From Planctomycetota bacterium (GTDB lineage: Bacteria; Planctomycetota; B15-G4; SIAN01): 64,000 nucleotides of DNA. Positions 16,261 to 39,731 of this stretch are shown here, in pieces. Both the position numbers and the translations under genes were made by a program. A model generated the notes under the pieces. It had not been told where the DNA came from. It did not search any database and worked only from the letters and a program-made list of their open reading frames with translations. Location of the stretch: assembly GCA_031409275.1 (NCBI GenBank), contig JANNXA010000055.1, positions 192,001 through 256,000 of the forward strand, given 5' to 3'. Position 1 is the stretch's first letter; the number at the start of each line of letters is the position of its first letter.

Positions 16261-17381
16261 ACGCGCCGCCGCGCACGATCTTCGTCAGCGCTGGCGACAC
16301 GTCGGGCGACCACCACGGCGCGCGCCTCGTCGAAGAGTTGCGCCTTCGCTTCCCCGACGCGCGCTTCACCGGGTTCGGCGGCGATGCGCTACGCGCCGCC
16401 GGCGTCGAGCTGCTCGATCCGCTGGCCGACCATCCCGTGATGGGGTTCGCGCCGGTCCTCGCACAGATCGGCCGCTTCATCCGCCTGCTGAACGGCATCG
16501 ACGGATGGCTCGCGCGCGAGCGTCCCGACGTCGTGATCCCGATCGACTACCCCGGCTTCAATGTGCGATTGGCTCGCCTCGCCCGCGGCCACGGCATCAA
16601 GGTCGCCTACTACATCTGCCCGCAGTACTGGGGCTGGGCGCCGTGGCGCGCGAAGCGCTTCGCCACCAGCATCGACCTCGGCCTCACGTTGCTGCCGTTC
16701 GAGGCGCCCTTCCTCGCCCGGTACGGCATCGCAGCGACCTGCGTCGGTCATCCGCTCGCCGATCGCATGGCGGAGGTGGCCCCGGCCGGCGCCGACGCCG
16801 ACGCGCTCGCGCTGCTTCCCGGCAGTCGCCGCCGCGAGATCGACGAACTCTTCCCATGGCAGCTGCGGGCGGCCGCGACGCTGGCGCAACGCGGTGCGCG
16901 ACGGCTGCGACTGGTGAGCGCCCATCCGCGCGCCGCGCAGCGCGACTACCTGCGCTCGATGGCGCGCGCCGCCGGCCTCGAAGTCGACGTGCGCGATCAG
17001 CCGCTGCCGCAACTGCTGCGGGAGTGCCGCGCCACGATCGTCACCTCGGGAACGGCGACGCTCGAGTGCGCCCTGATGCGCGTGCCGTCCGTGATCGTCT
17101 ATCGGGTGAACGCCTTCTCGAAGTGGGCGTCGAGCTTCATCTTGACGAGCCCCTGGATCGGCCTGCCGAACCTGCTCGCCGGCGACGAGCTCTTCCCCGA
17201 GTACCTCGCGGTCGAGGACCCTGGCGCGCCGCTCGACCGCGACCTCGCGGCGCTGTGGGACGACGGGGCGCCGCGTGAGGCGTGCCTGCGCGAGCTCGAC
17301 CGCTTGCGCGCCACGGTGCTGGTGCCGGGTGCCGCGCGCAAGGCCGCGGCCGCCATCGCGGAACTGATCGAGAGACGCTGA
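16257..17381 (+). CDS. lpxB: Lipid-A-disaccharide synthase
   Basis: SAGDTSGD, IDYPGFN, YICPQYWGW, LPFE, VGHPL, LLPGSR, SGTATLE, GLPNLL; GTGA overlap with ilvE. Confidence 0.93.
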   Translation: MNAPPRTIFVSAGDTSGDHHGARLVEELRLRFPDARFTGFGGDALRAAGVELLDPLADHPVMGFAPVLAQIGRFIRLLNGIDGWLARERPDVVIPIDYPGFNVRLARLARGHGIKVAYYICPQYWGWAPWRAKRFATSIDLGLTLLPFEAPFLARYGIAATCVGHPLADRMAEVAPAGADADALALLPGSRRREIDELFPWQLRAAATLAQRGARRLRLVSAHPRAAQRDYLRSMARAAGLEVDVRDQPLPQLLRECRATIVTSGTATLECALMRVPSVIVYRVNAFSKWASSFILTSPWIGLPNLLAGDELFPEYLAVEDPGAPLDRDLAALWDDGAPREACLRELDRLRATVLVPGAARKAAAAIAELIERR

Positions 17382-17412
17382 GCGGCGCGCCACCATCGGC
17401 GCACCTTCGAAC

Positions 17413-19281
17413 TCAGTCGCGCGACGCGGGCGGCGAGGGCGGCGGATCGACGAGGAAGATGACGCGAATGCGCCGCGATGGTGCGGTCGTCCTCGACTTC
17501 GACACCGAAGCGGGAGCGGCGTCGAGGAGGCCGCCGACGGCGGCATCGTCGCCGGCGATCGCTCGATACCGCTCGCTCGAGAGCAGCGCTTCGCTCGGCT
17601 CGGCAGTGGCAGGATCGGCGCTCGCGGCGCGGCCGACCGCGCCCGCGACGTCGCCTGGCTGCTGCAAGTCGCGCGCGGCGCCGGCCGTTTGCGCCGCGAC
17701 TCGACCCGCGCGCCACCGCGCAAGCCATGCCTCCGGCGTAAGTGGCTGCGCGCCATGCCACGCCTGCCACTGCGCTTCGTCGACATCGACGATCATCACT
17801 TCGTCGGCACGCGCACCCGGCGACGCATCCTTGTCTGCCGGCGAACTCTCGTGCGCCTCTTCGCGAGCGCCACCCGCGACGCCCGGCTCCGTGACGATGG
17901 GCCGCGCGTCCGCAGCATCGATCCGCGCGAAGAGGAGCAAGGTCGGCGCTCTCGCTGCGGCAGCCACCGAATCGTCGCTGGAGCGCTCCAACCGCTTGGC
18001 GTCTCCCTTCTGCTCCGGTTTGTTGTCGCGATCGGCGACGTGCTTCGCCTGTTCGCGCGACCGCTCCTTCGCGGATTCACCGGTCGAGAAGCCGCCCTCA
18101 CCCGGTTTCGAGGAAGGCGACGACGAGCGCGCGCTCCACTCCTCCGACTCGATCCCGTCCAGCGTCGCGCGCAACTGCGCGAGCGCGACGTGCGGCGCTG
18201 CGGCAGCGAGCAGTTGCATGGGATCGAACGGCAGCAACGTCGAGGTGTCGACAAGGCCGCGCGCCAGCGCTCCGGGCGCTTCCTCCGATGGAGCCGCCGT
18301 TGTTTCTGGAATCCCGCCGCCATCGTCGCCCGTCGGCGCCGGCGCCGCGACGTCACGTGGGCGGGCCGCTTCGCCGCCGGGGTTCCCGGCCGGCGGAGCG
18401 CCGAGAGGGGCGGGCGCTGCGGGTTTGCGAACGTCCGTCGAGACCGGCTTCGTCGGAGCCTCCTCCTGCTTCTTGGGATCGAGCGAGCCGGAGGTGGCGC
18501 CGCGGGGTCGCGACGACTCCTCGTCCGACTCCACGGCCGGATCTTTCTTCGACTTCGAGTCTCCCGCCAGCGGCGCGTCCTTCTTCCGCCCCGGTTCACG
18601 GCCCGCGCGGCGGTAACCCTGCTCGTCAGTAGCCCCCTCGCGGTCCGCCCCATCGAGCGCTTCGAAGTCGAGGATCGCCGGCGACGACGCCTCGTCCTCG
18701 AGCGCGTGCTCGGCAGGCGCGTCGCTTGCGCCGGCTGCGCCCTCGCTCGAAGCACGTCCCGGAACTCCACTGCCGCCACCGCCGCCGCCCGTCGCGTATC
18801 CGCTGAACCGTTCCTGATCGAACTCTTCGAGCGCGTCGAGATCGGTCATCGCCGCGGGTGGCGCCGAAGCCACGGATGCTGCGTCGCGCGCGGCCAGCAG
18901 CTCCGTTGCCGGCGCGAGAAGCCGCGATTGAAACCAAATCACCGCCGCCACGGCGGTCGCCGCCGCGAGCGCCAACGGCGCGGCGATCTTCCGCCAGCGC
19001 GACACGACGAGGCGCGGGGTGAGCGGCGCAGCAGCGGCGGCATTGACGCGGACGGCCGCATCCAACGCAGCCAGCGTGGCGTCGCGCAACTCGGCGGGAG
19101 CCGCCGTCGGGCCGCCGACCCTCAGTTCGCGCAATCCCGCCGTCACGCGGCGCGCCCGCAGGGCGGCCTCGCGGCAACTCGCACAACTCGCAAGGTGCAG
19201 GTCGAGCAGCGCCTGCTGTTCCGCCGACAAGCCGCCGTCGGCTGCGGTCCAGACCCACTCGCGCAGCGCTTCGCAGCTCAT
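17413..19281 (-). CDS. Zinc-binding (zf-HC2) membrane anti-sigma factor with long low-complexity extracytoplasmic region
   Basis: N-terminal MSCEALR and HLASCASC, TM segment IAAPLALAAATAVAAVIWF; ATGA overlap with the ECF sigma gene. Confidence 0.8.
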   Translation of the reverse strand: MSCEALREWVWTAADGGLSAEQQALLDLHLASCASCREAALRARRVTAGLRELRVGGPTAAPAELRDATLAALDAAVRVNAAAAAPLTPRLVVSRWRKIAAPLALAAATAVAAVIWFQSRLLAPATELLAARDAASVASAPPAAMTDLDALEEFDQERFSGYATGGGGGGSGVPGRASSEGAAGASDAPAEHALEDEASSPAILDFEALDGADREGATDEQGYRRAGREPGRKKDAPLAGDSKSKKDPAVESDEESSRPRGATSGSLDPKKQEEAPTKPVSTDVRKPAAPAPLGAPPAGNPGGEAARPRDVAAPAPTGDDGGGIPETTAAPSEEAPGALARGLVDTSTLLPFDPMQLLAAAAPHVALAQLRATLDGIESEEWSARSSSPSSKPGEGGFSTGESAKERSREQAKHVADRDNKPEQKGDAKRLERSSDDSVAAAARAPTLLLFARIDAADARPIVTEPGVAGGAREEAHESSPADKDASPGARADEVMIVDVDEAQWQAWHGAQPLTPEAWLARWRAGRVAAQTAGAARDLQQPGDVAGAVGRAASADPATAEPSEALLSSERYRAIAGDDAAVGGLLDAAPASVSKSRTTAPSRRIRVIFLVDPPPSPPASRD

Positions 19282-19925
19282 CGCGCCACCTCCGGCCCCT
19301 GGAAGCCGCTGCCGCCAAGCGCTCGCGACAGCTCTTCGCGCGCGCGCGCCAGGCGCGAGCGGACCGTCCCGATCGGGACTTCAAGCAGCGCCGCGATCTC
19401 TTCGTAGCTCTTGCCCTCGACGTCGCGCAGCAGGACCACGATGCGACGCGATTCCTCGAGCGCCGCGAACGCGCGATGGAGGCGCGCCCGCTCTTCCGTC
19501 GCCTGCGCCTGTTCGGGCGGGGTGGCGACTTCTCCGGGGATCTCGAACGTCGAGTCGTCTCCGGCGGCGGCCGCACCCAACGACAGCTGGCGACCCCGCG
19601 CCTTCGCGGCGAGGCTGCTGCTGCGGTTCAGGTGGAGGTTCACCACGATGCGATGGATCCAGGTCGTGAAGGCGGCGTCGCCGCGAAAGGCGGCGATGCC
19701 CTGAAGCGCGCGCAAGAACGCTTCCTGCGCCAGCTCCTGCGCGTCGTCGCGTCGGCCACGGCACAGCTGCAGCGCCAACGTGAAGACGCGATCCTGGTGG
19801 AGTTCGACGAGCTCGCCGAACGCCGCCCGATCCCCGAGCCGGGCACGGGCCACCACCGCCGAGTCATCGGCAGCGGCGGTCGCGTCCAGCGCAGGCGTCA
19901 CGACCTTGGATGACGACGGGTCCAT
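19278..19925 (-). CDS. ECF (sigma-70 family group 4) RNA polymerase sigma factor
   Basis: GDRAAFGELV, DAQELAQEAF, FTTWIHRIVVN, LRDVEGKSYEEIA, GTVRSRLARAR. Confidence 0.95.
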   Translation of the reverse strand: MDPSSSKVVTPALDATAAADDSAVVARARLGDRAAFGELVELHQDRVFTLALQLCRGRRDDAQELAQEAFLRALQGIAAFRGDAAFTTWIHRIVVNLHLNRSSSLAAKARGRQLSLGAAAAGDDSTFEIPGEVATPPEQAQATEERARLHRAFAALEESRRIVVLLRDVEGKSYEEIAALLEVPIGTVRSRLARAREELSRALGGSGFQGPEVAR

Positions 19926-19956
19926 CCGGTTCCCGACCGGGCCGCTGCCCGGAGCG

Positions 19957-20253
19957 TCACGGGGAGATACGACGGACGGTCACCGAGCCGCCGCGCACCG
20001 CCACCAGCCAATCGCCTTCGCCAAGCCTGGGCAACGCGACCTCGCCGCAGCAGTTCGCACCGCCGCTCGTTGCGCAGCCGCTGCAGTCGCACGCCTTCGA
20101 AGGCGCCGCGCCGCCCGCCGCCGGCGCCAGCTCGATGCCAGCCCACAACGCATAGTCGCGAGCCGCCGGCGTGACCAACGTGTCGCGATCCACGACCAGT
20201 CGCGAGCCGCGCGCCAGCCGGCGCAAGTCCGCCTCGGTCACCAAGCGCTTCAC
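19957..20253 (-). CDS. Small BMC-associated protein (98 aa) with Cys-rich middle segment
   Basis: GTG start overlaps the BMC-T stop (GTGA). MKRLVTEADLRR...DTLVTPAARDYALWAGIEL resembles the LITExDV...TPxARD module seen in BMC-locus proteins; followed by CDCSGC..NCC. Confidence 0.7.
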   Translation of the reverse strand: MKRLVTEADLRRLARGSRLVVDRDTLVTPAARDYALWAGIELAPAAGGAAPSKACDCSGCATSGGANCCGEVALPRLGEGDWLVAVRGGSVTVRRISP

Positions 20254-20855
20254 GAGGAGTTTCCCGGGCGCAACCACGCCATGAGGTCGGCGTGCGGTTG
20301 CGGGAGGAGGAGGGAGCCGAGCAGTTGCCCGCGCTCGCGAGCGAAGTGAAGCGCGGCCGCCAATGCGGCCTCGACTTGAGAGACCGTTCCGGTGGCGACG
20401 CAGTACGCCTTGCCGCCGAGCCCGTTCGCGGCGTTCACGGAGAGCAGCTCGATCGCCGCCGTCTTGAGCGCCGCGTCGGCCGCCAGCAGCAGCGTCGCCA
20501 CGGTCGCGCACTCGACGATCGCCACGGCTTCGCCGGCAGGGGCGACCGCCCCGCCGGCCAGCGCGCGCAGCAGGCGCGGCTCGACCTGCGGCAGGAGCAG
20601 CGTGTCGAGCGGCGCGTGCTCGAGTCCTTCTTGCGCGGCGCGCAGACCCGACACGACCGCGGCTGGCGCGCCCGCGAAGAGCACCAGCAACTTGCCGGGA
20701 GAGACCGGTCGGCACAGCAGCAGCGTGACGGGTGCCGCCTTCACCGCGCGATCGGCCGCGGCGAACCCTTCGGCAATGCTCGCGCACTCGACCAGCGCCA
20801 GCGCCTCGCCCTGCGCCGCCGTCGGCAACGCGAGATCGTCGAAGGACGGTTTCAT
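20250..20855 (-). CDS. BMC shell protein, tandem-domain BMC-T (PduT-like)
   Basis: Two BMC domains: ALVECASIAEGFAAADRAVKAAPV..SPGK and AIVECATVATLLLAADAALKTA..GLGGK..PQPH. Confidence 0.9.
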   Translation of the reverse strand: MKPSFDDLALPTAAQGEALALVECASIAEGFAAADRAVKAAPVTLLLCRPVSPGKLLVLFAGAPAAVVSGLRAAQEGLEHAPLDTLLLPQVEPRLLRALAGGAVAPAGEAVAIVECATVATLLLAADAALKTAAIELLSVNAANGLGGKAYCVATGTVSQVEAALAAALHFARERGQLLGSLLLPQPHADLMAWLRPGNSS

Positions 20856-20865
20856 CGCACCGCCA

Positions 20866-21525
20866 TCACGCGTCGCGACCGGAGAGGCCGGCGAGCGCCC
20901 GTTCCGCCGCGCGCGCCGCCTGCTCGATCTCCGCCTCGCCGCCGCCGAGGTAGACGCGCCCGAAGGCGCCCGACGCGCGCATCTCCAGCAGCTTGATCGG
21001 CGCCGCCTTCTCCGCCTCGTTGGCGGCGAGCGCGGCGTAGCCGGCCGGCTCGCACTCGAGGATGTAGAGCGTCTCGCCGCCGAGCAGCATCATCCCGTGG
21101 CGTTCACGGTTGATCAGCATGGTCTGGTAGTCGTCGACGTGCGTGATGATCTCGGAGGATTGGAGCTTCGGCTTGCGCCGCCCCTCTTCCTTCACGCCGA
21201 GGTAGTCGAGGATGCGCTGACCGGCGCCGCGAATCTCGCTCTGCGAGTCGGAGTGCAGTTCCAGCAGCCCGTACGCGCGCTCGACGATCTGCATGCCGGG
21301 GCGCACGTCATGCGACTTCAACGCGAGATCGGTGATGCGGTTGATGGCGATGCCCGGCGCGATCTCGACGTAGAGAGCGGCCTGGCCGGCGACCGGCAGG
21401 TAGCCGCGCGCCACCGTCGCGACGAACGACGCGAACTGCGGCTGCATCCGATCGATGAAGACGAACGAGCGCAGGTCGACGCCGCGCGTCGACGTCGGCT
21501 GCCGCTCGGGAGGTGGCGATTGCAT
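20866..21525 (-). CDS. BMC shell protein, permuted double-stacking trimer BMC-Tdp (CcmP/CsoS1D-like)
   Basis: [61 protein letters not shown]. Confidence 0.92.
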
Positions 21526-21540
21526 CGCGGCGCGCCGGGA

Positions 21541-21837
21541 TCAGCTCTCGGCCGCGGCGGCCGGCGGCGATGGCAGCAGCTGCTCGACTTCGGCGTGCGG
21601 GCGCGCGATGACGTGGACGGCGACGAGTTCGCCGACTCGCTGCGCGGCTGCGGCGCCGGCATCGGTCGCCGCCTTGACGGCGCCGACCTCGCCACGGACC
21701 AGCACGGTGACGAGTCCGCCGCCGACCTTCTCGCGGCCGAGCAGGGTCACCTTCGCGGCCTTGACCATGGCATCGGCCGCCTCGATGGCCGCGACGAGCC
21801 CCTTGGTCTCGATCATTCCCAGTGCGATCTGCTGCAT
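21541..21837 (-). CDS. BMC shell hexamer protein BMC-H (EutM/PduA-like)
   Basis: [62 protein letters not shown] upstream. Confidence 0.97.
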
Positions 21838-21858
21838 GTCGATTCACGTCCTCGGTCG

Positions 21859-21891
21859 GGCGCGACGCACGCCGAAAGGCGCGCGCACGCC
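21859..21891 (-). promoter_or_regulatory. Intergenic RNA stem-loop upstream of the BMC-H RBS
   Basis: Minus strand GGCGUG-CGCGCGCC-UUUC-GGCGUGCG-U-CGCGCC forms a 14-bp stem whose two G-U pairs work only on the mRNA strand; no U-tract. Confidence 0.55.
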
Positions 21892-21902
21892 TGGGTGGAT
21901 GG

Positions 21903-23405
21903 TCAGCGTTTGCGTGGAGGTGTCGGGTAGTCGCGGCCGCCGATCGAAGAGCCATGGAACGAAGGCGGTGCCGGCCGCCGCGGCAGGGATGCCGGCAAGA
22001 AGCTCTCGCGATCGAGACGCCGGCGCGCCTCCTCCTCGATGAAGCCGGGCCGGCCGAAGGCGAGCCGCTTGCGCAACATCAAGTTCTCGGCCGTGATGTT
22101 GTCCGACGTGATGTTGCCGCCGAACGCTCCACAGCCGAGCGTGAGCGACGGCTTCAATCCGGTCGACAGCCCGACCGCGCCGTGGCTGGCCGGCGTGTTC
22201 ACGAGGATGCGGTTGGCCGGCTTCTCGAGCGCGAACTCCCAGATGATCTTCTCGTCGTTGCTGTGGATGGTGAGCGTGTGGCCGCGGCCACCGAAATTGA
22301 GGATCTCGAGGCAACGCTCGCAGCCCGCCTTCCAATCCTTCACCACGTAGAACGCGAGGATCGGCGAGAGCTTCTCCATCGACAGCGGATGGTCCCAACC
22401 GACGCCCGTCTCCTCCGTCAGCAAGACCGGGCAGTCGCGCGGGACCTTGAAGCCCGCCATCTCCGCGATCTGCCAGGGATAGAGGCCGACGATCGCCGGG
22501 TTGAGCGCTTTGCCGTTCGCCACGACGCGCGCGAGTCGAGCGCGCTGATCGGCATCGCAGAAGTGGGCCGCGCGCGCCTTGAAGGCGGCGACCACGGCGT
22601 CACGGATCGGCGCGTCGACGACGACCGCTTGCTCGCTGCAACAGAGCGTCCCGTTGTCGAACGCCTGGCTCTGCACGATCGCCTCGACGGCAAGCTCGAC
22701 GTTCGCGCTCTTCTCGATGTAGACCGGGACGTTGCCCGGCCCGACCCCGATCGCCGGCTTGCCGGAGCTGTAGGCGGCGCGCACGAGGCCCGGCCCGCCG
22801 GTCGCGAGGATCAGCGCCGTCTCGCGCGCCTTCATCGCCGCATCGGTCCCTTCGAGCGTCGGCTTGGCGAGGCAGCTGATGAGGTCCTTCGGCGCGCCCG
22901 CACGCGTGGCCGCCTCGGCAGCGAGTCGCGCCACTTCGCCGATGCATCCCACCGCGCGCGGGTGCGGCGACAAGACGATCGAGTTGCGCGTCTTGACCGC
23001 GATCAGGATCTTGAAGATGGCTGTCGAGGTCGGATTGGTGACTGGGATGATCCCGACCACCACGCCGTAGGGCTGCGCGATCTCGTAGACGCGATTCACT
23101 TCGTCGCTGGCGATGACGCCCACCGTCTTCAGCGCGCGGATCGACTCCCAGACGCCGCTGGCGGCGAAGCGATTCTTGCGCGTCTTGCTCGAGACGTCGC
23201 CGAAGCCTGACTCGGCGCACGCCATGGTCGCGAGCCGATGGGCGTCGCGCTCGAGCACCGCGACGATCGCCGTGCAGACGCGGTCGACCTTGGCCTGATC
23301 CGCCTTGCTCCACGCGGCCTGCGCCACTGCCGAGCGGCGCGTCGCGTCGCGGGCTTCCTGGATCGAGGCGAGATCGGAGTCGGCAGCCATGAGGCGCGGG
23401 ATCAT
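21903..23405 (-). CDS. CoA-acylating aldehyde dehydrogenase (EutE/PduP/AdhE-ALDH type)
   Basis: DSDLASIQEAR, GIIPVTNPTST, SPHPRA, ILATGGPGLVRAAYSSGKPAIGVGPGN, FDNGTLCCSEQ, EKLSPIL, TLGCG..GGN.TSDN. Start ATG 23405 (ATGA overlap with the rodA stop) or ATG 23390. Confidence 0.93.
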   Translation of the reverse strand: MIPRLMAADSDLASIQEARDATRRSAVAQAAWSKADQAKVDRVCTAIVAVLERDAHRLATMACAESGFGDVSSKTRKNRFAASGVWESIRALKTVGVIASDEVNRVYEIAQPYGVVVGIIPVTNPTSTAIFKILIAVKTRNSIVLSPHPRAVGCIGEVARLAAEAATRAGAPKDLISCLAKPTLEGTDAAMKARETALILATGGPGLVRAAYSSGKPAIGVGPGNVPVYIEKSANVELAVEAIVQSQAFDNGTLCCSEQAVVVDAPIRDAVVAAFKARAAHFCDADQRARLARVVANGKALNPAIVGLYPWQIAEMAGFKVPRDCPVLLTEETGVGWDHPLSMEKLSPILAFYVVKDWKAGCERCLEILNFGGRGHTLTIHSNDEKIIWEFALEKPANRILVNTPASHGAVGLSTGLKPSLTLGCGAFGGNITSDNITAENLMLRKRLAFGRPGFIEEEARRRLDRESFLPASLPRRPAPPSFHGSSIGGRDYPTPPRKR

Positions 23406-24658
23406 AGCGCCGCATCTCGCGCCGGCGTCGCCACGCCTCGCGCATGGAACGGGTCGAGCGGCTCGCCCGACCGATAGAGGAACGGCTCGGCATCGCGCCG
23501 CGATCGGGCCGCCGAGATCACCATGCCGATCAGCATGAAGGCGGACAGCACCGAAGAGCCGCCCTGGCTGACGAAGGGAAGCGGGATTCCGGTCACGGGA
23601 ATCAGGCCCGTGGTCATCGCCATGTTGGCGAACGCCTGCATCACCAGCGCCGCGGCCGCGCCGGTCGCGACCAGCTGGCTGAAGCGATCGCGAGTGCTGG
23701 CGCCGACGGCCAGGCAGGAGAGGCCGAGCAGCAGGTAGAGCAGCAGCAACCCGCAACATCCGACGAACCCCCACTCCTCGGCCACCACGGCGAAGATGAA
23801 GTCGGTGTGACGTGCCGGCAGGTAGGAGAGGCGATTCTGCGGCCCCTGTCCGAGTCCCTTGCCGAACAGGCCGCCCGAACCGATCGACGTCTGCGCGCAA
23901 TGCGATTGGTAGCCGGCGCCGCGCTTCAGGTTGGAGAGCTTCTCCTCGAGCGCGTCGGCGGCGACCACATCGCCGGCGCGGCGTGCCGCCAGAGCCTTCG
24001 CCGCGAGCTCCGGCACCGATTCGAGGAACGTGCGCACGCGCTCCTTCTGGTAGGGCTTCAGGATCGGTGAGAAGTACATCGCCGGCATCAGGACGGCGGC
24101 GATCGCCGCGGCGCCGACGAAGTGGAGCTTCCTCGCGCCCGCGCACCACACCATCGCGATCAAGATCGGCACCAGCAGCAGTGCCGTGCCGAGATCGGGC
24201 TCGAACTTGATCAGCACGAACGGCAGGCCGACGATCGCGAGCGGGCCGAGCCAGTCGCGCAGCCGCGTCGGCGGGCGGCGGAACTCGAGCCAGCGCGCCA
24301 ACGCGAGCACCAGCAACGGCTTCATCACCTCGCTCGGCTGCAGCTGGACGTCGAACGGGAGCTTGAACCAGCGCCGCGCGCCGCCGACCTCGATGCCGAT
24401 GAACGGCACCAGCATCAGCAGCACGATGCCGACGGCGTAAAGCGGATAGGCGAAGCGCGCGAGCCGCCGCGGCGCGAATCCAGCGAAGGCGATGAGCGCC
24501 GGCAACGCGGCCGCGGCCAGCACCAGCTGACGGCGCTCGATCCCGGCGTTCTGCGTTCCGAGCGTGCTCGACCGGACGAAGAGGATGCCGGTGGCGAGCA
24601 GACTCGCCGCGAGCAGCAGGAGTTGCCATGGCAGATCGAGACGGCGCCGCCAGATCAT
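23402..24658 (-). CDS. rodA: Rod shape-determining SEDS glycosyltransferase
   Basis: GGARRW, QPSEVMK, EPDLGT, GYQ..SIGSGG..GKG, LPARHTDFIFAVVAEEWGF, PVTGIPLPFVSQGGSS; directly after the PBP2 gene. Confidence 0.95.
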   Translation of the reverse strand: MIWRRRLDLPWQLLLLAASLLATGILFVRSSTLGTQNAGIERRQLVLAAAALPALIAFAGFAPRRLARFAYPLYAVGIVLLMLVPFIGIEVGGARRWFKLPFDVQLQPSEVMKPLLVLALARWLEFRRPPTRLRDWLGPLAIVGLPFVLIKFEPDLGTALLLVPILIAMVWCAGARKLHFVGAAAIAAVLMPAMYFSPILKPYQKERVRTFLESVPELAAKALAARRAGDVVAADALEEKLSNLKRGAGYQSHCAQTSIGSGGLFGKGLGQGPQNRLSYLPARHTDFIFAVVAEEWGFVGCCGLLLLYLLLGLSCLAVGASTRDRFSQLVATGAAAALVMQAFANMAMTTGLIPVTGIPLPFVSQGGSSVLSAFMLIGMVISAARSRRDAEPFLYRSGEPLDPFHARGVATPARDAAL

Positions 24659-27096
24659 CGCGCGCCCTCGCCATCGATCGCGGCGTCCTCGGACGGCGAA
24701 CTCGACGGATCGAGGGGCGCCTCGTCGTCGCCACTCTCCTCACCCTCTGGCACCTTCTCGTCGATGCCGGCCGCGGCCGCCGCCATGCGAATGGCGGCTG
24801 CTTCGGAATCGCTGCGCCGCGCGATCGCCGAGACCTCGGCGAACGCGGGGTCCTGCAGAAGTTCGAGCAGGAACGGGCCACAGGCGTCGCCGCCGTGCAT
24901 CCCCGTACGCTCGACGAAAAGGGCGAAGGCGTAGCGCGGCGCCTGGCTCGGGAAGAAGCCGACCAGCCACGAGTGCGACAAGGGGCTGCCCGCCTGCTGG
25001 GGCGTACCGGTCTTGGTGGCGAGATCCCAACCGGTCAGGTCGTAGCCGTGCGGCGGGCCCGCCGTGCCGCCCGGCATGGTCACGCCGCGCATCGCTTCGA
25101 CGACGGTCGCCCAGGCGGCGGGGCTGATCGGCAGCGGCTCGATGGCGGGACGGGACGGCACCTCCTCGCCGATACGCGCGATCAACGTCGGTGGCTGGTA
25201 GCCGCGCATCGCCAGCGCCCCGATCGCCGCCGCCATCTGCAGCGGCGTCGCGTCGACCTTGCCCTGTCCCAGCCCAAGCAGCATCAGGTTGCGCCCGCCG
25301 TTCTCGCGCGCCGCGTTGCCCGCCGCCTCGCTGCCCAGACCGCGGATGCGGGTGCCGTCGACGAGCTCCGCCGAGGTGAAGCCGGTCTTGCGCCCCAGTC
25401 CGACCGACTGGTACCAGCCGATCATCCGCTCCGAACCGCATGCCGCCGCCGTACGCGCGAAGTAGTGGTTGCACGACTTCACCAGCGCGTCATGAACATC
25501 GATCGCGTCATGACGCCCTTCGCACAGCACCGGCCTGCTCTCGCCTGCGGCTCGCAGCTGGTCCTTGTCGCATTCGAGCAGCGTCCCGGGTCCGATCTTG
25601 CCCGCGGTCAGCGCGAACGCGGCGACCAGCGGTTTCACCGCCGAGCCCGGCGGCGCCGGAAAACACGGCTTCCACGCACGCGGATGGAGCGGCCGCAACT
25701 TCGTGTCGGCGACGAGTCGATCCCACTCCTCGGCGAGCTCGACGCGCGCAAGCGCTGGACACGACGCCAGCACGCGCACCTCCATCGACGGCAATTCCAG
25801 CAGCACGAACGCGGCTGGATGGAAGCGGCGCACCGGATCGCCCTCCTTGGCGACGCCGCGCCGCAGGATCTGCTCCGCGGCCTGCTGCAGCTTCGCGTCG
25901 AGCGTCAGCATCAGCTCCGCGCCAGCGCGCGGCGGCACCACTTCGAGCTCGCGCTCGATGCGACCGGAACGGTCATTCTCCGTCCGTCGATAACCACGCC
26001 GTCCGCGCAACTGCGACTCGTAGGCCGCCTCGAGCCCGTCCTTGCCGATCTCGTCGTCGGGCGTGATCGCGTCGAGTCGCAGCCGCTCGTCGAGCTCCGC
26101 CATGCGCTGCGACTGCTCGAGCGTGGGGAACGGCTCGAGCGCAAGGAGACTGCGCTCGTCGCGATCGTTCTCGTACGCGGCGATCGCCGCCGGCGAAGGT
26201 GGTCCGACCCGGCCGATCAGATCGGCGCAGACATCCTGCTCGGGTGGATAGACGCGGCGCACCTCCTCGCGCACGACGACGCCCGGCAGCCGCGCCGGAT
26301 CGGCGGCGAGGTCGACCGCCAGCGCGTGGGGAATGCGCTCGAAGAGCTTCGCGTCGCGATAGTCGAACTCGCGGTGCATCTCGCGTTCGCGCTCGTAGGG
26401 CCGCGCAGTCGGCGGCTCGTCCGCAAGCGAGCGCAGCACGCGCGCGTCGGTGGCACGGATCGCTTCGTCGATCCGATCCACGAGCGGCGGTTCCGCGGCC
26501 TCGATCCGGAGCGCGCGGCCGAGCGCCGCGAGCGTGATCGCTTCCTGACGCACGCGCTCGAAGATCGCGGCACGCTCCTCCACGAGACGCGGAAACGCCA
26601 GCGCTTGGGGTTCGCCACGGCGCAAGCGCTCGAGGCCCTCCTTGATCGACTCCTCGCCGACCAGCCAGGTCGCGTAGTAGAGGAGATCTTCACGACGTTG
26701 ACCGGGCTCGATCGCCGCGAGTTCGCCGACGCGAAGGGCTGCCAACTCGTCGAGGAAGGGCTGCGGGCGCTCCAGCACCTCCGCCACATCGCGCCGCTCT
26801 CCGGTCAGCAGATAGCGCGCGAGCAGGAGCTGGCCGCTGGCGGCGCCGCGACGGAAACCGGCGAAGACGAACGCGAGGTTCCAGGTCGTGCGATGGCTGG
26901 CGAGCGGGCGACCGGCGCAATCGACGATGGCGCCGCGACGAAAGCCGATCGCCTGCGCGCGCGTGCGCGCCTTGATCGCCTCGGTGTCCCAGAATTCGCG
27001 CTGGGAGAATTGCAACGTGGCGAGGCGCGCGACGATCGCAGCCGCGACGCCGACGAAGACGAGCCCGACCTGGAGCAAGCGCGAGCCGCCGCCCAT
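24655..27096 (-). CDS. mrdA: Class B penicillin-binding protein (PBP2-like transpeptidase)
   Basis: N-terminal TM anchor, RRGAIVDCAGRPLA, GKDGLEAAYE..LRG, LTLD; active-site motifs SAVK, SCN, KTGT; HSWLVGF; mre context. Confidence 0.88.
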   Translation of the reverse strand: MGGGSRLLQVGLVFVGVAAAIVARLATLQFSQREFWDTEAIKARTRAQAIGFRRGAIVDCAGRPLASHRTTWNLAFVFAGFRRGAASGQLLLARYLLTGERRDVAEVLERPQPFLDELAALRVGELAAIEPGQRREDLLYYATWLVGEESIKEGLERLRRGEPQALAFPRLVEERAAIFERVRQEAITLAALGRALRIEAAEPPLVDRIDEAIRATDARVLRSLADEPPTARPYEREREMHREFDYRDAKLFERIPHALAVDLAADPARLPGVVVREEVRRVYPPEQDVCADLIGRVGPPSPAAIAAYENDRDERSLLALEPFPTLEQSQRMAELDERLRLDAITPDDEIGKDGLEAAYESQLRGRRGYRRTENDRSGRIERELEVVPPRAGAELMLTLDAKLQQAAEQILRRGVAKEGDPVRRFHPAAFVLLELPSMEVRVLASCPALARVELAEEWDRLVADTKLRPLHPRAWKPCFPAPPGSAVKPLVAAFALTAGKIGPGTLLECDKDQLRAAGESRPVLCEGRHDAIDVHDALVKSCNHYFARTAAACGSERMIGWYQSVGLGRKTGFTSAELVDGTRIRGLGSEAAGNAARENGGRNLMLLGLGQGKVDATPLQMAAAIGALAMRGYQPPTLIARIGEEVPSRPAIEPLPISPAAWATVVEAMRGVTMPGGTAGPPHGYDLTGWDLATKTGTPQQAGSPLSHSWLVGFFPSQAPRYAFALFVERTGMHGGDACGPFLLELLQDPAFAEVSAIARRSDSEAAAIRMAAAAAGIDEKVPEGEESGDDEAPLDPSSSPSEDAAIDGEGAR

Positions 27097-27144
27097 CCCC
27101 CGCCATTCCTTCGCGCGCCGCCGTTTCGAGAGCGATCCGGTGCG

Positions 27145-27663
27145 CTACGCCGACGAGCGCCCCGACCTTGCCCGCCATGCCGCGAGAGTCGCGACGAGCT
27201 TGCGCCACCCGCTCGCCCCACCATCGCCGGCGCGCGCGAGTATCGGCAGCAGCAGCCCGGCCAGCAACGGCGCGTTCCACGACGCGGCGCTCCACGGCAG
27301 CGCAGCGGCGAGGTCGAACCACGCGAACAGTTCGCGCGCACAGCGCAGCAAGGTCGCCGCGGCGGCCGCAAAGAGGAAACGGGTCAGCGCGCTTTCGACG
27401 AAGACCACTTCGCGCATCGGCACCAGCACCAGCGCGGCGATGCCGCCGCCAAGCAGCAGCGCGCCGATCGGATCGGCGCTGAACGTGGAGAATCCGAGCA
27501 GAAGCCCGATCACGAGGCCCGCGGCGCGACGATCGGGCGCGCGCAACAGGACCGCGCCGATGGCGACGCCGAGCAGGTCGGGGGCGACATCGATGTGAGC
27601 ACGCCACGCGCCCTCCAGGACGCCCAGCAGGAGCCCGATGGCGAGTCCGATCGGCAGGCTCAC
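27145..27663 (-). CDS. mreD: MreD-like integral membrane protein
   Basis: About 172 hydrophobic aa with VAPDLL motif, between mreC and mrdA; GTGA overlap with the mreC stop. Mostly positional. Confidence 0.65.
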   Translation of the reverse strand: MSLPIGLAIGLLLGVLEGAWRAHIDVAPDLLGVAIGAVLLRAPDRRAAGLVIGLLLGFSTFSADPIGALLLGGGIAALVLVPMREVVFVESALTRFLFAAAAATLLRCARELFAWFDLAAALPWSAASWNAPLLAGLLLPILARAGDGGASGWRKLVATLAAWRARSGRSSA

Positions 27664-28922
27664 GGCGCTGCGCTCCACGCGCCAGCCGGTCGCCAAGCGA
27701 CGACGCGACCCACCGGCTCGGGCGTCGCGACCAGCTCGCAACGGCCATTCTTCTCCGTCAGCGCGCCGATCAGCAGTCCCTCCGGGGTGCCGTCCGCGCT
27801 TGCCGCGGTCACGACGAGCGCCCCCTCCCACGCGAGCCCGACCGGCGGACGCACTTCGATGGTGCTCCCGTGCGCCCGCACGACTTCGAGTTCGAAGGCC
27901 AGGACCGTGCCCTCGACCAGGGCGAGCGCACGCTGGCGGAATCCGGGGTCGCGCACCGTCTGCACCAGCGCGTGGCCGAAGCCGGCGCGGACGACGCGGC
28001 CGAGCAGGTACCCCTCGCTCGCGACGGCGCTCCCCGGAACGATGCCCTGCTCGCGGCCGTCGCAAAGGCGTGCGAACGCGCGGCGCGAGTCGACGACGGA
28101 GTGGGCGAGCAGCTCGCTCGCGCAGGGATAGAGGTCGGTGTCGCTCGGGAGCGGAAGTCCCGGCGGAAAGCGGATCGCCACTTCGGCCAGCCGCTCGAGC
28201 GGACGCAGCGGCTCGATCCGCCACTCCTCCCGTTCGGCCCCCTCGGGCAGGTCACCGCGCACGAGCCGACCCAGCACCGCGGCGTCGATCACGCGATTGG
28301 CGGCGCCGCCGCGCGGACTAGGCGGATCGAGGGCGAAGGCGAAATCGCCTTCATGCAGCTCGACGCCGCCGTCGGCGTACGCCACTCGCAGCGCCGTGCT
28401 GCCATCCCCGAGCGCCAGGAAGCGCGCTTCACGTCGCCCGGGTGCACCGGCGCACGCCGACAGGCGGGTGCCCGACTTCGTCACCCGCTCGAGGCGAATG
28501 CTCCCGTTGGAACGAGCCGCCGTGAAGCCGACCAGCTGCTCGCCGTAGAAGGCGGGTTCGCCGGGTGCGACTGCGGCCGGCGGCATCAACGTCAGTTCGA
28601 GGCCGTCCGCCGTGCCGAGAGGGACGACGCCGAAGCGCCCGTCGCGTTGCCACCCGCGAGCCTTGGGTGGCAGCACGCTCTGGCGCAGCGACGCGAGCAG
28701 CTCGGCGACGCGCGGGTCGGCGGCCGCTGCGGGCGGAGTGGAATCAGCGGCGCGGGCGGATCGCCGCGCCGGCTGCACGAGTCCGCGCAACGTCCACGTC
28801 AGCTCCTCGGCGAGCTCGTGCGCGCGCTGGATCGCCGGAATCGGCAAGAGTCCGCTGATCCCGACGAGGACGAGGATCGCCGGCCAACGCTTCGGAGCCG
28901 GCTCCTGCAAGCCGTCCGCCAT
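27660..28922 (-). CDS. mreC: MreC-like protein (divergent, apparently duplicated beta-domain)
   Basis: N-terminal TM; C-terminal DGREQGIVPGSAVASEGYLLGRVV..LVVTAASADGTPEGLLIG matches the MreC pattern; follows mreB. Confidence 0.7.
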   Translation of the reverse strand: MADGLQEPAPKRWPAILVLVGISGLLPIPAIQRAHELAEELTWTLRGLVQPARRSARAADSTPPAAAADPRVAELLASLRQSVLPPKARGWQRDGRFGVVPLGTADGLELTLMPPAAVAPGEPAFYGEQLVGFTAARSNGSIRLERVTKSGTRLSACAGAPGRREARFLALGDGSTALRVAYADGGVELHEGDFAFALDPPSPRGGAANRVIDAAVLGRLVRGDLPEGAEREEWRIEPLRPLERLAEVAIRFPPGLPLPSDTDLYPCASELLAHSVVDSRRAFARLCDGREQGIVPGSAVASEGYLLGRVVRAGFGHALVQTVRDPGFRQRALALVEGTVLAFELEVVRAHGSTIEVRPPVGLAWEGALVVTAASADGTPEGLLIGALTEKNGRCELVATPEPVGRVVAWRPAGAWSAAP

Positions 28923-28949
28923 GGTCGCCTCTCTGCGCGCCGACTGTCG

Positions 28950-30017
28950 TCAGCTGTCGTCGCCGCTCGGAAGCACCTGGCTGTAGAGGTGGAGCTGGCT
29001 CAGGAACTCGAAAGTGCCGCGGGCAACGCAAGTCAGCGGGTCCGGAGCGATGCGCACGGGAAGCTGGACCGCGTCCTGGATCGCGACGTCCATCTTGCGC
29101 AGCAGGGCACCACCGCCGGCGAGCGTGATGCCGGTTCGAACCAGGTCGGCCGACAACTCCGGCGGCGTCTTCTCGAGCGTCCGGCGAACGGCCGCGACGA
29201 TCTGCTTCACGGGCTCGGAGAGGGCGACGCGAATCTCTTCGGACCGCACCATCGTGCGGCGCGGCAACCCAGAAATGGTGTCGCGGCCCGCGACCTCCAT
29301 CTCCATTTCCTGCTCGAGCGCTGCCGCGCTGCCGATCTCGAGCTTCACGCGCTCGGCGGTCGGCTCGCCGATCATCAGATTGTGCTCGCGCCGCATGTAC
29401 TCGCAGATCGAGGCGTCGAACTCATCGCCTGCGACGCGGATCGACTCGGCATGCACGAGACCGAACAACGAGATCACGGCAACCTCGGTCGTGCCGCCAC
29501 CGATGTCGACGATCATGCTGGCGACGGGCTCGGCGATCGGCAGGCCCGCGCCAATGCCGGCCGCGATCGGCTCCTCGACCAGGTAGACCTTGCGAGCGCC
29601 GGCACGCTCCGCCGAGTTGATGACGGCGCGCCGCTCGACCGCCGTGATGCCCGACGGGATCGACACGACGATGCGCGGGCGCACGAACGAACGCCCCTTG
29701 TGCACCTTGCGGATGAAGTACCGCAGCATCTTCTCGGTGATCTCGAAGTCGGCGATCACGCCGTTGCGCAGCGGTCGGATCGCCTCGATGTTGCCCGGCG
29801 TCTTGCCGAGCATCTCTTTGGCGGCGAGTCCCACGGCGTTGCCGTCGAGGAGCACCTCGTTGGTGCCCTTCTTCACCGCGACGACGCTCGGCTCCGAAAT
29901 CACGATTCCGTGGTCCTTGATGCAGACCAACGTGTTCGCGGTTCCGAGGTCGATTCCCATGTCGTGCGAGAAGCGTCCAATCAACCACTCGATCGGCCGC
30001 AAGAAAGCTTGGCTCAT
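28950..30017 (-). CDS. mreB: Actin-like rod shape-determining protein
   Basis: MGIDLGTANT, EPSVVA, IRPLRNGVIADF, EEPIAAGIGAGLPI, VDIGGGTTEVAVISL, LAGGGALL, PLTCVARG. Confidence 0.98.
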   Translation of the reverse strand: MSQAFLRPIEWLIGRFSHDMGIDLGTANTLVCIKDHGIVISEPSVVAVKKGTNEVLLDGNAVGLAAKEMLGKTPGNIEAIRPLRNGVIADFEITEKMLRYFIRKVHKGRSFVRPRIVVSIPSGITAVERRAVINSAERAGARKVYLVEEPIAAGIGAGLPIAEPVASMIVDIGGGTTEVAVISLFGLVHAESIRVAGDEFDASICEYMRREHNLMIGEPTAERVKLEIGSAAALEQEMEMEVAGRDTISGLPRRTMVRSEEIRVALSEPVKQIVAAVRRTLEKTPPELSADLVRTGITLAGGGALLRKMDVAIQDAVQLPVRIAPDPLTCVARGTFEFLSQLHLYSQVLPSGDDS

Positions 30018-30082
30018 GGACCTACCGCCATCCCTTCGCGCGCGGGGCAATTCCCCGCATTCCCGCCGGCTCTCACCGTCCG

Positions 30083-30122
30083 ATAACGAAGCGGGCCGCC
30101 GTCCCTGAGGACCGCGGCCCGC
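30083..30122 (-). terminator. Putative intrinsic terminator/attenuator hairpin between the small membrane gene and mreB
   Basis: Inverted repeat GCGGGCCGC..GTCC-CTGA-GGAC..GCGGCCCGC (30091-30122) followed on the minus strand by TTCGTTAT (weak U-tract). Confidence 0.45.
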
Positions 30123-30233
30123 GCAAGTCACATGCTTGTTTCGGGTGCCGCCGGCCCAGTACGGCCGGCATTCAAGCGCCCAGACCCACCATCGAATAGG
30201 GCCAGGAAAGCCCGACTTCGCGACCCGTCACCG

Positions 30234-30419
30234 TCAGACGAAGAGTCCGGTCCCGAAGTACTTCTTCATCGCGAGCTGCGCGAGGATGACCCCCACCAGC
30301 AGCGCGGCGAAGGTGACGAAGGCCAACCCCCCGGTGAGATCCATCTCCTTCGGAGCCGTAGGCTCCGATTGGAGGTCGTTCTGCTCTTCCATCTTCGCGG
30401 CCGACGTGCGCTTGGCCAT
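30234..30419 (-). CDS. Small single-pass membrane protein (61 aa)
   Basis: GGAG RBS upstream, one hydrophobic helix (GGLAFVTFAALLVGVILAQLAM), same strand as neighbours. Confidence 0.65.
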   Translation of the reverse strand: MAKRTSAAKMEEQNDLQSEPTAPKEMDLTGGLAFVTFAALLVGVILAQLAMKKYFGTGLFV

Positions 30420-30484
30420 GTCAGGCGTCTCCGGTCAATCGAGTGCAGGAGTGGTTTCGATCCGGTGGACAGCAACCGGTCGGC

Positions 30485-31336
30485 TCAGAGCCGGGTGGTC
30501 GCCGTGTCCATGGCCTGGAACTCGAGGCCGCCCTTGTTCTTCATCTGGACGCGGGCCGTCGAGGTGTCCGGAAGGACGTTCTCGACCACGACGCGACCGA
30601 TGTAGCTGTTGCCGCGGTAGACGTCGAAGGGGAAGCCGACCTTCACGCCCTCGTTCTCACCCACCGACAGGACGACGAACCCGGAGCCGACCGCGCTGAC
30701 CTTGCCAGCGATGGAGGGGACCGCGTTGCCGACCAGGGCGCCGATGTCGACGCCGGCAGCCACGAGCGCGGCGCGCTCCGCCTGGAGGTTGCCGATCTCG
30801 TCGCCCTGCTTGGCAAGCTGCATTTCCTTCGCCGCGATGTCCTCGTTGGCGCGCTTCAGATCCCCCTCGAGGCGGGCGCGATCATCCTGCGCGTTCAGCT
30901 TGTCCTGCTCCGCCTTCGCGGTCGTCGCACGGTGCTGATCGTTGGAGTCCATCAGCGCCTTGTTGCGCGCCTCGACATCCGAGAGCTGGGTTTCGACGAC
31001 CTTCAGCGACGCGGCGTTCGCGTCGACCGAGTTGCGCAGCTGGTTGTTGTCGTTGCGCAGCTGATCGACCGAGGCATTCGCCGTCGCGAGCTCGGCACTG
31101 CGATCGGCCAACTGGTTGGTCAGATCGCGATTGCGCGACTCGAAGTTGTTCTTGTCAGAGACAGCAGTGTCGACGTCCTTCTGCTTCGCAGTGACGTCGT
31201 TCTGACGATCCATCTGCTCCTTCTCGAACCTGGCCTTGTAGTCCTCGCTCTTCGACAGGATCGAGCCGATCGTGCCGACCATGACGAGGGAGAAGACGAG
31301 GTTGAGGACCGTGAAGACCTTTGCGATGGTGCTCAT
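30485..31336 (-). CDS. Membrane-anchored coiled-coil protein with C-terminal beta domain
   Basis: MSTIAKVFTVLNLVFSLVMVG anchor, long heptad-rich region, C-terminal GKVSAV..VVLSVGENEGVKVG..FDVYRG..IGRVVV; AGAGGA RBS. Confidence 0.8.
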   Translation of the reverse strand: MSTIAKVFTVLNLVFSLVMVGTIGSILSKSEDYKARFEKEQMDRQNDVTAKQKDVDTAVSDKNNFESRNRDLTNQLADRSAELATANASVDQLRNDNNQLRNSVDANAASLKVVETQLSDVEARNKALMDSNDQHRATTAKAEQDKLNAQDDRARLEGDLKRANEDIAAKEMQLAKQGDEIGNLQAERAALVAAGVDIGALVGNAVPSIAGKVSAVGSGFVVLSVGENEGVKVGFPFDVYRGNSYIGRVVVENVLPDTSTARVQMKNKGGLEFQAMDTATTRL

Positions 31337-31485
31337 CAGCCTTGATTCCTCTGGCAGCGTGAGCGCGCAGGGCACCGCAGCCCAACGCGCGATCCGAGCG
31401 AGCCACTCCACGCATCTGTCAAGATGCGGGCCACGACACCCAACCCCTTTACGTCGCCAGGGTTAGAGCCGTGGAAAGGGGCGGG

Positions 31486-31513
31486 ACTATAGGGCGCCCG
31501 GAAAAGCTGTCAA
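31486..31513 (-). promoter_or_regulatory. Near-consensus sigma70 promoter
   Basis: Minus strand TTGACA-N16-TATAGT in an intergenic region about 150 bp upstream of the coiled-coil gene. Confidence 0.65.
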
Positions 31514-31561
31514 ACAGTCTTTGCCAGGGGTCTGACAGGGCCCCGCCCCACGAGCGGCCCT

Positions 31562-37580: not shown

Positions 37581-37617
37581 GGCGAGATCGACGGCGCAGG
37601 CCGGAGCGGAAGCCCCG

Positions 37618-38001: not shown

Positions 38002-38005
38002 GAGA

Positions 38006-38437: not shown

Positions 38438-38489
38438 GGTCTTGTCCTTGCGCGCGGCACGAGGTCGCGCGATGGGTGGATCGGTCGTT

Positions 38490-39710: not shown

Positions 39711-39731
39711 GGAGCACTCGCTTCGGATGGT

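Follow-up and report, generated by a model that had tools for sequence, protein, structure and literature searches.

The 64,000-nucleotide stretch of planctomycete DNA analysed here (the window; assembly GCA_031409275.1, contig JANNXA010000055.1, positions 192,001 to 256,000) carries genes for a bacterial microcompartment (BMC) directly behind the cell-shape (elongasome) genes mreB, mreC, mreD, mrdA and rodA. The genome of the window, G000, is a draft of 55 contigs that is 92.9% complete, and the gene calls made for this analysis give 4056 genes and 90% coding DNA; G-, f-, L- and C-numbers denote genomes, families, loci and contigs, respectively. A reading made from the sequence alone had described ten genes, from mreB to a small protein, as one translationally coupled operon with gaps of at most 65 bp. 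The coordinates and gaps are as that reading gave them: every one of the ten is encoded on the minus strand, and the successive gaps are 27, -4, 48, -4, -4 (or +11 to a second ATG of the sixth gene), 65, 15, 10 and -4 bp. Tight spacing by itself is ordinary in this genome, since 4-nt overlaps occur in 509 and gaps of at most 65 bp in 1638 of its 2799 co-directional gene pairs. The ten genes do lie within 19957..30017, but this extent proved too narrow, as the same-strand run continues on both sides, with two more genes upstream (31336-30234) and ECF sigma and anti-sigma factor genes downstream (19925-17413). The comparisons below suggest that the BMC unit probably has a promoter of its own and stays behind rodA as an inherited neighbourhood.

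The first BMC gene encodes a CoA-acylating aldehyde dehydrogenase (AldDH; 21903..23390, minus strand, alternative start 23405), which is 495 aa long from its likely start at 23390, begins at a conserved D-x-D-L motif without an N-terminal extension, and ends in a tail that is proline-rich as judged by eye. It scores 582.9 bits with TIGR02518 (cut-off 620.1), and its best PDB match is 5J78, an acetylating acetaldehyde dehydrogenase. The residues C250, E339 and H371 are invariant in 14 of 14 aligned sequences and are spaced like C269, E357 and H387 of the acylating enzyme in the available part of PMC4762007. The AldDH gene is followed on the same strand by genes for a BMC-H hexamer shell protein (21541..21837; PF00936), the only BMC-H found in the genome, for a CcmP-like stacked trimer, BMC-Tdp (20866..21525; NF053796, 285 bits; PDB matches 5V76, 5V74 and 4HT5), and for a PduT-like BMC-Ts (20250..20855), which is closest to TIGR02526 and has Ser in the PV(C/S)PGK loop where PDB 3NWG has Cys. 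The last gene (19957..20253, minus strand) overlaps the BMC-Ts stop (GTGA), comes after BMC-Ts in relatives too, and encodes a 98-aa BMC accessory protein for which a family alignment gives an N-terminal PduM/PDU_like-type domain, a Cys-rich middle and a short C-terminal motif. This protein matches PF15953, TIGR02536 and TIGR04493 weakly, all below cut-off, and has no named family in the Atlas, where the first match is an unnamed, mostly Planctomycetota cluster. The PF00936 genes of G000 are confined to the window, and three PF03319 (BMC-P) genes are found on contig C40. The genome encodes both the shell proteins of a catabolic BMC and the CoA-acylating enzyme with catalytic Cys, Glu and His that marks a metabolosome. 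The closest named AldDH loci are labelled Planctomycetota and fall in one clade with the window AldDH (SH-aLRT 98), in a tree that leaves out 13 close relatives and does not resolve whether the rodA-linked lineages make one clade.

The letters ATGA, in which the sequence-only reading saw the rodA stop overlap an AldDH start, are present at 23402-23405 (5' to 3' on the coding strand, 23405-23402). They are included in the hexamer TATGAT (23401..23406, minus strand), one of 16 in the genome, which overlaps the rodA stop and is predicted to be the -10 element of a near-leaderless promoter of the BMC unit. With this conserved -10-like hexamer over the rodA stop, the earlier inference of no room for a promoter is wrong, and the sign that the sequence-only reading had itself named as evidence against coupling, a start within rodA, is matched in silico. 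The hexamer sits 10 nt before the second ATG (23390), which agrees with the start used by relatives when the upstream DNA is aligned. All 20 genomes compared (6/6 in f1, 14/14 in f4), which are kin and hence not independent, have the pattern TAnnnT at a distance of 7-10 nt ahead of the AldDH ATG; the chance of finding it in a slot of four positions is about 0.003 per locus. The consensus over these genomes is T20 A20 T15 G16 A17 T20, the extended -10 positions have G in 17 and T in 10 of the 20, and the next 25 bases upstream are not conserved. Also, the hexamer is retained even where other genes part rodA from AldDH, and in f68 a TAnnnT site is found inside the rodA frame or close to its end.

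Translational coupling through the overlap did not hold up. The overlap is found in four genomes only, whereas the hexamer is conserved where the overlap is not: eight of the 20 genomes have no ATG in it, and in another eight, with a spacer of 8 or 9, its ATG is not in frame, so that the hexamer cannot be a coupling start in 16 of 20 genomes. The rodA frame likely ran into the spacer until it was halted by the TGA within the hexamer. A stop-start overlap of this kind can be a misread promoter, which is relevant for annotating these genomes.

The same pattern is common elsewhere in G000. Ahead of divergent genes, TAnnRT is most frequent at spacers 6-12, and TAnnnT at spacers 5-12 precedes 106 of 1032 divergent genes versus 20 of 1024 tightly linked ones. 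Its density is about ten times higher in divergent than in convergent intergenic DNA (3.02 versus 0.32 per kb). Genome-wide, TAnnnT also peaks sharply 6-12 nt before first-in-operon start codons, which suggests many near-leaderless mRNAs, and for 3 of the 16 TATGAT sites the gene caller began the gene at the ATG within the hexamer. Promoters with only a -10 element and near-leaderless transcripts have been tested experimentally in Deinococcus-Thermus (PMC12340547), and there too TAnnnT stands just before the start codon, no -35 is present and gene callers mis-pick upstream starts. The spacer in those bacteria is about 6-7 nt compared with 7-10 nt here, where the promoter is a prediction, and Planctomycetes go unmentioned in the available part of that paper.

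The junction between rodA and the first BMC gene appears to behave as an operon boundary. Foreign genes intervene there in 21 of 37 loci, and in 15 of the 37 at least one of them is on the opposite strand; a few of the short gene calls among these inserts may be spurious. No foreign genes are found between mreB and mrdA (0/26 loci), between mrdA and rodA (0/33) or between AldDH and BMC-Tdp (0/31), which argues against the single coupled operon of the sequence-only reading. The inserts are mutually unrelated; those on the opposite strand include a peptidase M16, a DNA methylase with Vsr, an alpha-2-macroglobulin and a DnaJ. In the methylase case (G264; L178 3714-5163), genes for a cytosine methylase and Vsr stand together, opposite in strand, between rodA and AldDH. 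In f4 (L047, L048, L049, L058 and L307), a gene that we take to be glutamate dehydrogenase-like usually stands next upstream of AldDH, between rodA and the BMC genes. The converse is also observed: in G011 and G017 the sigma factor gene comes directly after rodA with no BMC, G006 keeps the block without BMC genes, and in these three BMC-less genomes the order of mreBCD-mrdA-rodA, the sigma factor, lpxB and ilvE is preserved.

The linkage itself is widespread. A gene-neighbourhood survey, proposed with the sequence-only reading and carried out here, placed the link far beyond this assembly. An orthologous AldDH is present in 31 of the 41 other genomes of the class; rodA lies upstream on the same strand and contig in 23 of these 31, with 15 bp to 20 kb between the matches, and the two are on different contigs in the remaining 8. 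Outside the class, AldDH was found in 50 genomes of a 301-genome phylum sample, of which 43 were examined and 7 were not. Among the 43, the genes are linked in 23 (20 within the fetched stretch and three at 12, 32 and 38 kb), 11 have no rodA in at least 13 kb, and 9 stretches end too soon. The loci L060 and L061 were kept out of the per-genome tallies as possible duplicates, and G173 is linked but was missed by the labelling of the 37-locus junction survey. The link spans 12 families of Planctomycetota, which speaks against the chance rearrangement that had also been considered. Among 80 named AldDH loci listed, four have rodA nearby and all four are from Planctomycetota; in a sample of listed loci from outside the phylum with at least 8 kb upstream, the link is absent in 52 of 52. 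Quick trees of RodA and AldDH from the 37 linked loci agree in 16 well-supported splits and conflict in one. The arrangement is old and vertically inherited.

The neighbourhood is real and conserved, and no published description of it was found. The sequence-only reading knew of no BMC locus within a cell-wall elongation operon, and this agrees with the literature: searches on microcompartments with mreB, rodA or elongasome, on MIC3, on OM190 and on the DHAP (dihydroxyacetone phosphate) shunt gave no title or abstract describing the arrangement. In the available supplements of the BMC catalogue PMC8217296, MreB is mentioned only as a homologue of EutJ; two large archives outside this coverage may show the neighbourhood.

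The reading considered probable here is that the BMC genes form a separate transcription unit whose position is inherited. The TATGAT overlapping the rodA stop would be the -10 element of this unit, with the start of transcription a few bases ahead of the ATG at 23390; the resulting mRNA would be near-leaderless and would cover AldDH, BMC-H, BMC-Tdp, BMC-Ts and the small protein. The linkage would persist since gene order changes slowly in these planctomycetes. As a baseline, G000 was compared with four distant genomes, about 200 kb from each, whose orthologues have a median identity of about 43%: 60 of 75 adjacent same-strand orthologue pairs still lie within 20 kb of each other in G000, as do 20 of the 51 same-strand pairs that are not adjacent and 7 of 43 pairs on opposite strands. 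Unrelated neighbours persist as well, with lnt kept in 10, moeA in 6 and the sigma factor in 11 of 20 linked loci.

Several observations weigh against this reading. Of the 37 linked loci, 28 have a TAnnnT no more than 100 nt from the first BMC gene, versus 20 of 128 control starts; this contrast favours a promoter of the unit's own, yet it is inflated by the coding DNA that precedes most control starts, and nine of the 37 loci have no such site. The BMC site has no -35 element, which is also the reason that a standard promoter scan, requiring a -35, missed it. At the rodA-AldDH junction there is neither a terminator-like site nor an unusual fold (z +0.85), so that read-through from the mre promoter is possible. 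The hexamer's ATG is in frame in G000, G002, G004 and G005, and re-initiation on a read-through mRNA would be possible in these four. In addition, rodA and the BMC genes adjoin directly in each of six families (f1, f3, f23, f68, f74 and f79), and f9 has only a BMC-H between rodA and AldDH. The gene-order baseline is rich in housekeeping operons and so does not separate inertia from mild selection, and its four genomes were picked from linked ones, so that part of the apparent inertia may be selection for a highly expressed neighbourhood.

These points lead to the strongest alternative, which is nevertheless unlikely: that the position is selected because the BMC genes, besides having their own promoter, receive read-through from the strong mre promoter, so that their supply scales with growth, with the ATGA allowing ribosomes to re-initiate. 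The missing terminator and the in-frame ATGA retained in four f1 genomes are consistent with it, as are the 16 of 37 linked loci in which no foreign gene was called at the junction and the reach of the link over 12 families when no listed locus from another phylum has it. On the other side stand the opposite-strand genes that intervene in 15 of 37 loci, distances of 9-38 kb in several genomes, the 11 AldDH genomes lacking rodA upstream, and a background gene order that is similarly stable. A physical or metabolic tie to the elongasome, with MreB positioning the shell or the organelle clearing aldehydes from wall turnover, is very unlikely. Adjacency is what speaks for it, along with the lack of an ftsZ match in 5 of 5 genomes searched, which would leave room for MreB to have other roles here. 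Against it, the three BMC-less genomes have an unaltered elongasome block, the BMC also occurs unlinked, and neither BMC locus has a conserved enzyme of wall recycling; peptidoglycan synthesis is not known to release free aldehydes. The sequence-only reading had raised both forms of this idea, and nothing was found that points to them; its most surprising claim, that an organelle is coupled to the elongation of the cell wall, finds no support. An assembly error or one-off rearrangement has hardly any probability left: the assembly is a 55-contig draft, and the contigs of sequencing runs X1 and X2 (Logan), both of one study, that each cross the junction without differences may come from its source samples, so that the independent evidence against a misjoin comes from other genomes: G002, G004 and G005 share the direct junction, and 46 in all share the order. 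Joints with sides of 19-22 letters were disregarded.

The elongasome unit upstream has a predicted promoter as well. A strong sigma-70-like site, TTGACA-16-TATAGT (31486..31513, minus strand; 11 of 12 matches), is the sole promoter-like match in 17000-32000, and a TTGAC-like -35 with TAnnnT is also found upstream of the same gene in f1, f3, f16 and f23 genomes. This gene, likely the first of the unit, encodes a membrane-anchored coiled-coil protein of 283 aa (30485..31336, minus strand) that is kept upstream of mreB in relatives and matches no Pfam family at E 0.001. Between it and mreB lies a gene for a 61-aa protein with a single membrane span and no family match (30234..30419, minus strand). 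Both genes also head the mre unit in BMC-less relatives, and a weak match to the crescentin rod was observed (E 0.005); the two proteins are candidates for new elongasome or cytoskeletal parts.

Nine of the ten genes first described bear out their names or descriptions. On the minus strand, mreB (28950..30017) passes the cut-offs of PF06723 and TIGR00904, the divergent mreC (27660..28922) scores 33.3 bits with PF04085 (cut-off 28), mrdA, encoding PBP2 (24655..27096), has PF00905 and PF03717 with TIGR03423 as the best NCBIfam match, below cut-off, and rodA (23402..24658), with its stop codon within the -10-like hexamer, has PF01098 and scores 327.5 with TIGR02210 (cut-off 336.7). The tenth, mreD, matches no family; this hydrophobic protein (27145..27663, minus strand) presumably is MreD-like by its position. 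Two genes stand between mreB and mrdA in 25 of 26 loci, and the remaining locus has a split mreC call.

Downstream of the BMC genes, an ECF sigma factor (19278..19925, minus strand) belongs to the conserved block and is retained where the BMC is absent, and it is followed by an anti-sigma factor with a zf-HC2 zinc finger (17413..19281, minus strand; PF13490). This pair, which comes directly after rodA in G011 and G017, may regulate envelope functions. Further upstream, moeA and lnt (31562-34392, minus strand) overlap by 4 nt and are found upstream of the mre unit even in distant families. An isc-type iron-sulfur cluster operon occupies 34708-40184 (minus strand); the terminal segment of its 745-aa HscA-like frame resembles what we take to be IscX, suggesting a fusion.

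The second BMC locus of the genome, on C40 (L008 9711-11373), consists of the three BMC-P genes and a class II aldolase (pfam00596). It lies behind a SurA-like gene, and this arrangement (L008 8249-11373) is found in f1, f3, f7, f9, f23 and one f4 genome, so that it represents a second old housekeeping neighbourhood; f2 retains a single BMC-P at the SurA-side locus. After the aldolase locus, C40 of G000 continues with genes for a glycosyltransferase, a PIG-L protein and a nucleoside:H+ symporter. The window proteins together with the BMC-P triplet and the aldolase would build one metabolosome of the MIC3-like type. In this organelle the aldolase would split a ketose 1-phosphate into DHAP and an aldehyde, and the AldDH would convert the aldehyde to acyl-CoA; the chemistry of this enzyme pair is established, and the substrate is what the following comparison addresses. 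An orthologue of the aldolase is present in 34 of 42 class genomes and in 0 of 5 f5 genomes. The enzyme passes no NCBIfam cut-off.

Three aldehyde sources have been considered. A source other than the two named further below, such as a route involving the ACT-domain and DUF711 proteins of f2, f4 and f9 or an OtnC-like reaction, is a real possibility, short of being probable. ACT-domain and DUF711 genes come after the shell genes in many relatives, the ACT protein has the same type of N-terminal domain as the small protein, and the best NCBIfam match of the aldolase is OtnC, 3-oxo-tetronate 4-phosphate decarboxylase (127.7 versus a cut-off of 250). Neither ACT nor DUF711 homologues were found in G000 by tblastn, which makes them dispensable for the core, and OtnC is not known to make an aldehyde.

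The likeliest single source, though itself short of probable and put forward tentatively, is the salvage of 5'-deoxyadenosine and methylthioadenosine. In the DHAP shunt, or Drd pathway, as presented in the available text of PMC6079011 and PMC10986504, MtnP, MtnA and a class II aldolase act on these two compounds, and all three are present in G000, where MtnP (TIGR01694) and MtnA (TIGR00512) are over cut-off. MtnP and MtnA would convert 5'-deoxyadenosine or methylthioadenosine to (methylthio)deoxyribulose 1-phosphate, which would then yield acetaldehyde or methylthioacetaldehyde. Compared with DrdA (PDB 6BTD), the C40 aldolase shows only a family-level likeness (E 1.5e-20) and differs in sitting with BMC-P genes. 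Across the class, MtnP and MtnA are each found in 39 of 42 genomes and MtnB is over cut-off in 2 of 42. One genome that is 90% complete, G006, is the only such f1 genome without a BMC; it also has no aldolase, and its mtnB adjoins an ARD gene (L294 5024-6147). A housekeeping salvage role would fit a promoter of sigma-70 type, and it would also fit a main locus in which neither a transporter nor a sugar regulator is conserved. Several observations weigh against this source. MtnB occurs in 17 of 301 phylum genomes, and a phylum-wide anti-correlation between BMC and MtnB was sought and not found: MtnB is present in 3 of 69 genomes with AldDH (6 long AdhE-sized matches, identified by frame length only, being excluded) versus 14 of 232 without. 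As MtnB is rare phylum-wide, its absence is uninformative. The f5 genomes retain MtnP and MtnA without BMC or MtnB, mtnA and mtnP adjoin neither BMC locus in G000, the three shunt genes are not clustered, and the aldolase is closest to OtnC. The word microcompartment is absent from the DHAP-shunt papers matched.

A pathway like that of the PVM metabolosome, with fuculose or rhamnulose 1-phosphate cleaved to lactaldehyde, is improbable. Homologues of the aldolase are named L-fuculose-phosphate aldolase by JGI, and alignments to FucA-type structures place in it what we take to be the metal ligands of FucA. A rhamnulokinase-like gene is found in G000 and 6 of 7 other f1 genomes, and G006 lacks both the kinase and the BMC. 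The kinase is however found in 0 of 16 f4, 0 of 1 f3 and 2 of 12 f2 genomes, although most of these keep BMC and aldolase, whereas 4 of 5 f5 genomes have the kinase without a BMC. Also, the rhamnose cluster of G000 has its own bifunctional aldolase/dehydrogenase, over the cut-off of TIGR02632. This rhamnose-type cluster (C18 21431-27903; L271) combines the bifunctional enzyme with the rhamnulokinase-like gene, and it contains three genes that we presume to be lactate-utilisation-like.

Taken together with the position behind rodA, the salvage reading suggests a broader picture, which is doubtful in its full form: an ancient housekeeping organelle, in planctomycete lineages where no ftsZ was found, that handles by-products of S-adenosylmethionine (SAM) chemistry through the DHAP shunt, has its own promoter and is kept behind the elongasome for growth-scaled read-through. 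If true, it would provide a function for MIC3- and HO-type shells, and the organelle would be core and growth-linked rather than substrate-induced. Constitutive expression of scattered BMC genes has been suggested in the available part of PMC4207490.

Among the known metabolosomes, that of Planctomycetes and Verrucomicrobia (PVM) comes from the same phylum and likewise combines a class II aldolase with an AldDH. Its genes, presumably including PTAC and an alcohol dehydrogenase together with the aldolase, lie in one locus; the loci of G000 are split in two, and G000 has no PF06130 (PTAC) match and no PF00465 (Fe-ADH) match over cut-off. The PVM reading is weakened by these missing enzymes and by a kinase distribution that does not track the BMC. 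In f2, a family III (CaiB-like) CoA-transferase gene is found just before the first BMC-H (L050 7622-8719; L051 9877-11007; L308 627-1772) and is a candidate for CoA recycling where PTAC is absent. The SPU type, as described in the available part of PMC11585597 and proposed there for nucleoside-sugar salvage, shares with G000 an acetaldehyde-type acylating AldDH, a BMC-Tdp and a BMC-P triplet. Its defining DERA was not found in G000, where the sole PF01791 match is a class I fructose-bisphosphate aldolase (NF006704), and the SPU reading was rejected; RpiB (PF02502) has no match in this 92.9% complete genome either.

The type I BMC of Haliangium ochraceum (HO), for which the function is likewise uncharacterised, is closer in layout. 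Its main locus combines shell genes with AldDH, its satellite contains BMC-P genes next to a class II aldolase, and it has one BMC-H and three BMC-P; the best PDB matches of the window BMC-Tdp are HO proteins. HO differs in having two BMC-Tdp as well as a BMC-P triplet split between the loci, compared with one BMC-Tdp in the genome and all three BMC-P on C40 in G000. In addition, the HO AldDH has an N-terminal encapsulation peptide that the G000 AldDH lacks, and HO is mostly deltaproteobacterial.

The closest likeness is to MIC3 (Sutter et al. 2021; PMC8217296, supplementary file 4), a Planctomycetes type whose layout matches that of G000, including the satellite BMC-P triplet with a pfam00596 aldolase. 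L063, a named locus that also lies behind rodA (8 kb upstream), has a BMC-Tdp that falls into the same 90% cluster as CMO84_11985 and CMJ98_06050, and the available files assign the neighbouring tags of these two to MIC3. The position next to rodA goes unmentioned in the covered parts of PMC8217296, and pfam05167 was not found in the readable supplements of this catalogue. According to these files, the MIC3 main locus has two BMC-H and two further BMC-P, whereas the window has one BMC-H and no BMC-P. Among the relatives, two BMC-H are found in most f2 and f9 genomes and the two main-locus BMC-P in many f4 and f9 genomes. The MIC3 main locus also has a pfam04909 amidohydrolase, and G000 has no PF04909 match; the amidohydrolase was rejected as a core part, being found before the BMC genes in only three f9-type loci among those examined (L063, G311 and G294). 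Finally, the MIC3 AldDH has a long linker and a four-Cys C-terminal domain, which f9 and most f68 AldDHs carry; the tail of the G000 enzyme has no Cys and the separate Cys-rich 98-aa protein is found instead. In many f2, f4 and f9 genomes the BMC operon closes with ACT-domain and DUF711 (PF05167) genes (L058 2413-4351; L068 14547-16449; L052; L057), and the N-terminal domain of the ACT protein, which resembles that of the 98-aa protein, is a possible cargo tag. Because the second BMC-H, the main-locus BMC-P pair, the amidohydrolase and the four-Cys tail are lacking, the G000 organelle is a reduced variant of the catalogued, uncharacterised MIC3 metabolosome rather than a full member. MIC3 and HO microcompartments have been catalogued without an assigned substrate, and the HO shell is the main structural model. 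The planctomycete version is old and vertically inherited and lies in core-genome neighbourhoods behind a predicted promoter of sigma-70 type; this suggests that its role is housekeeping and not tied to a niche.

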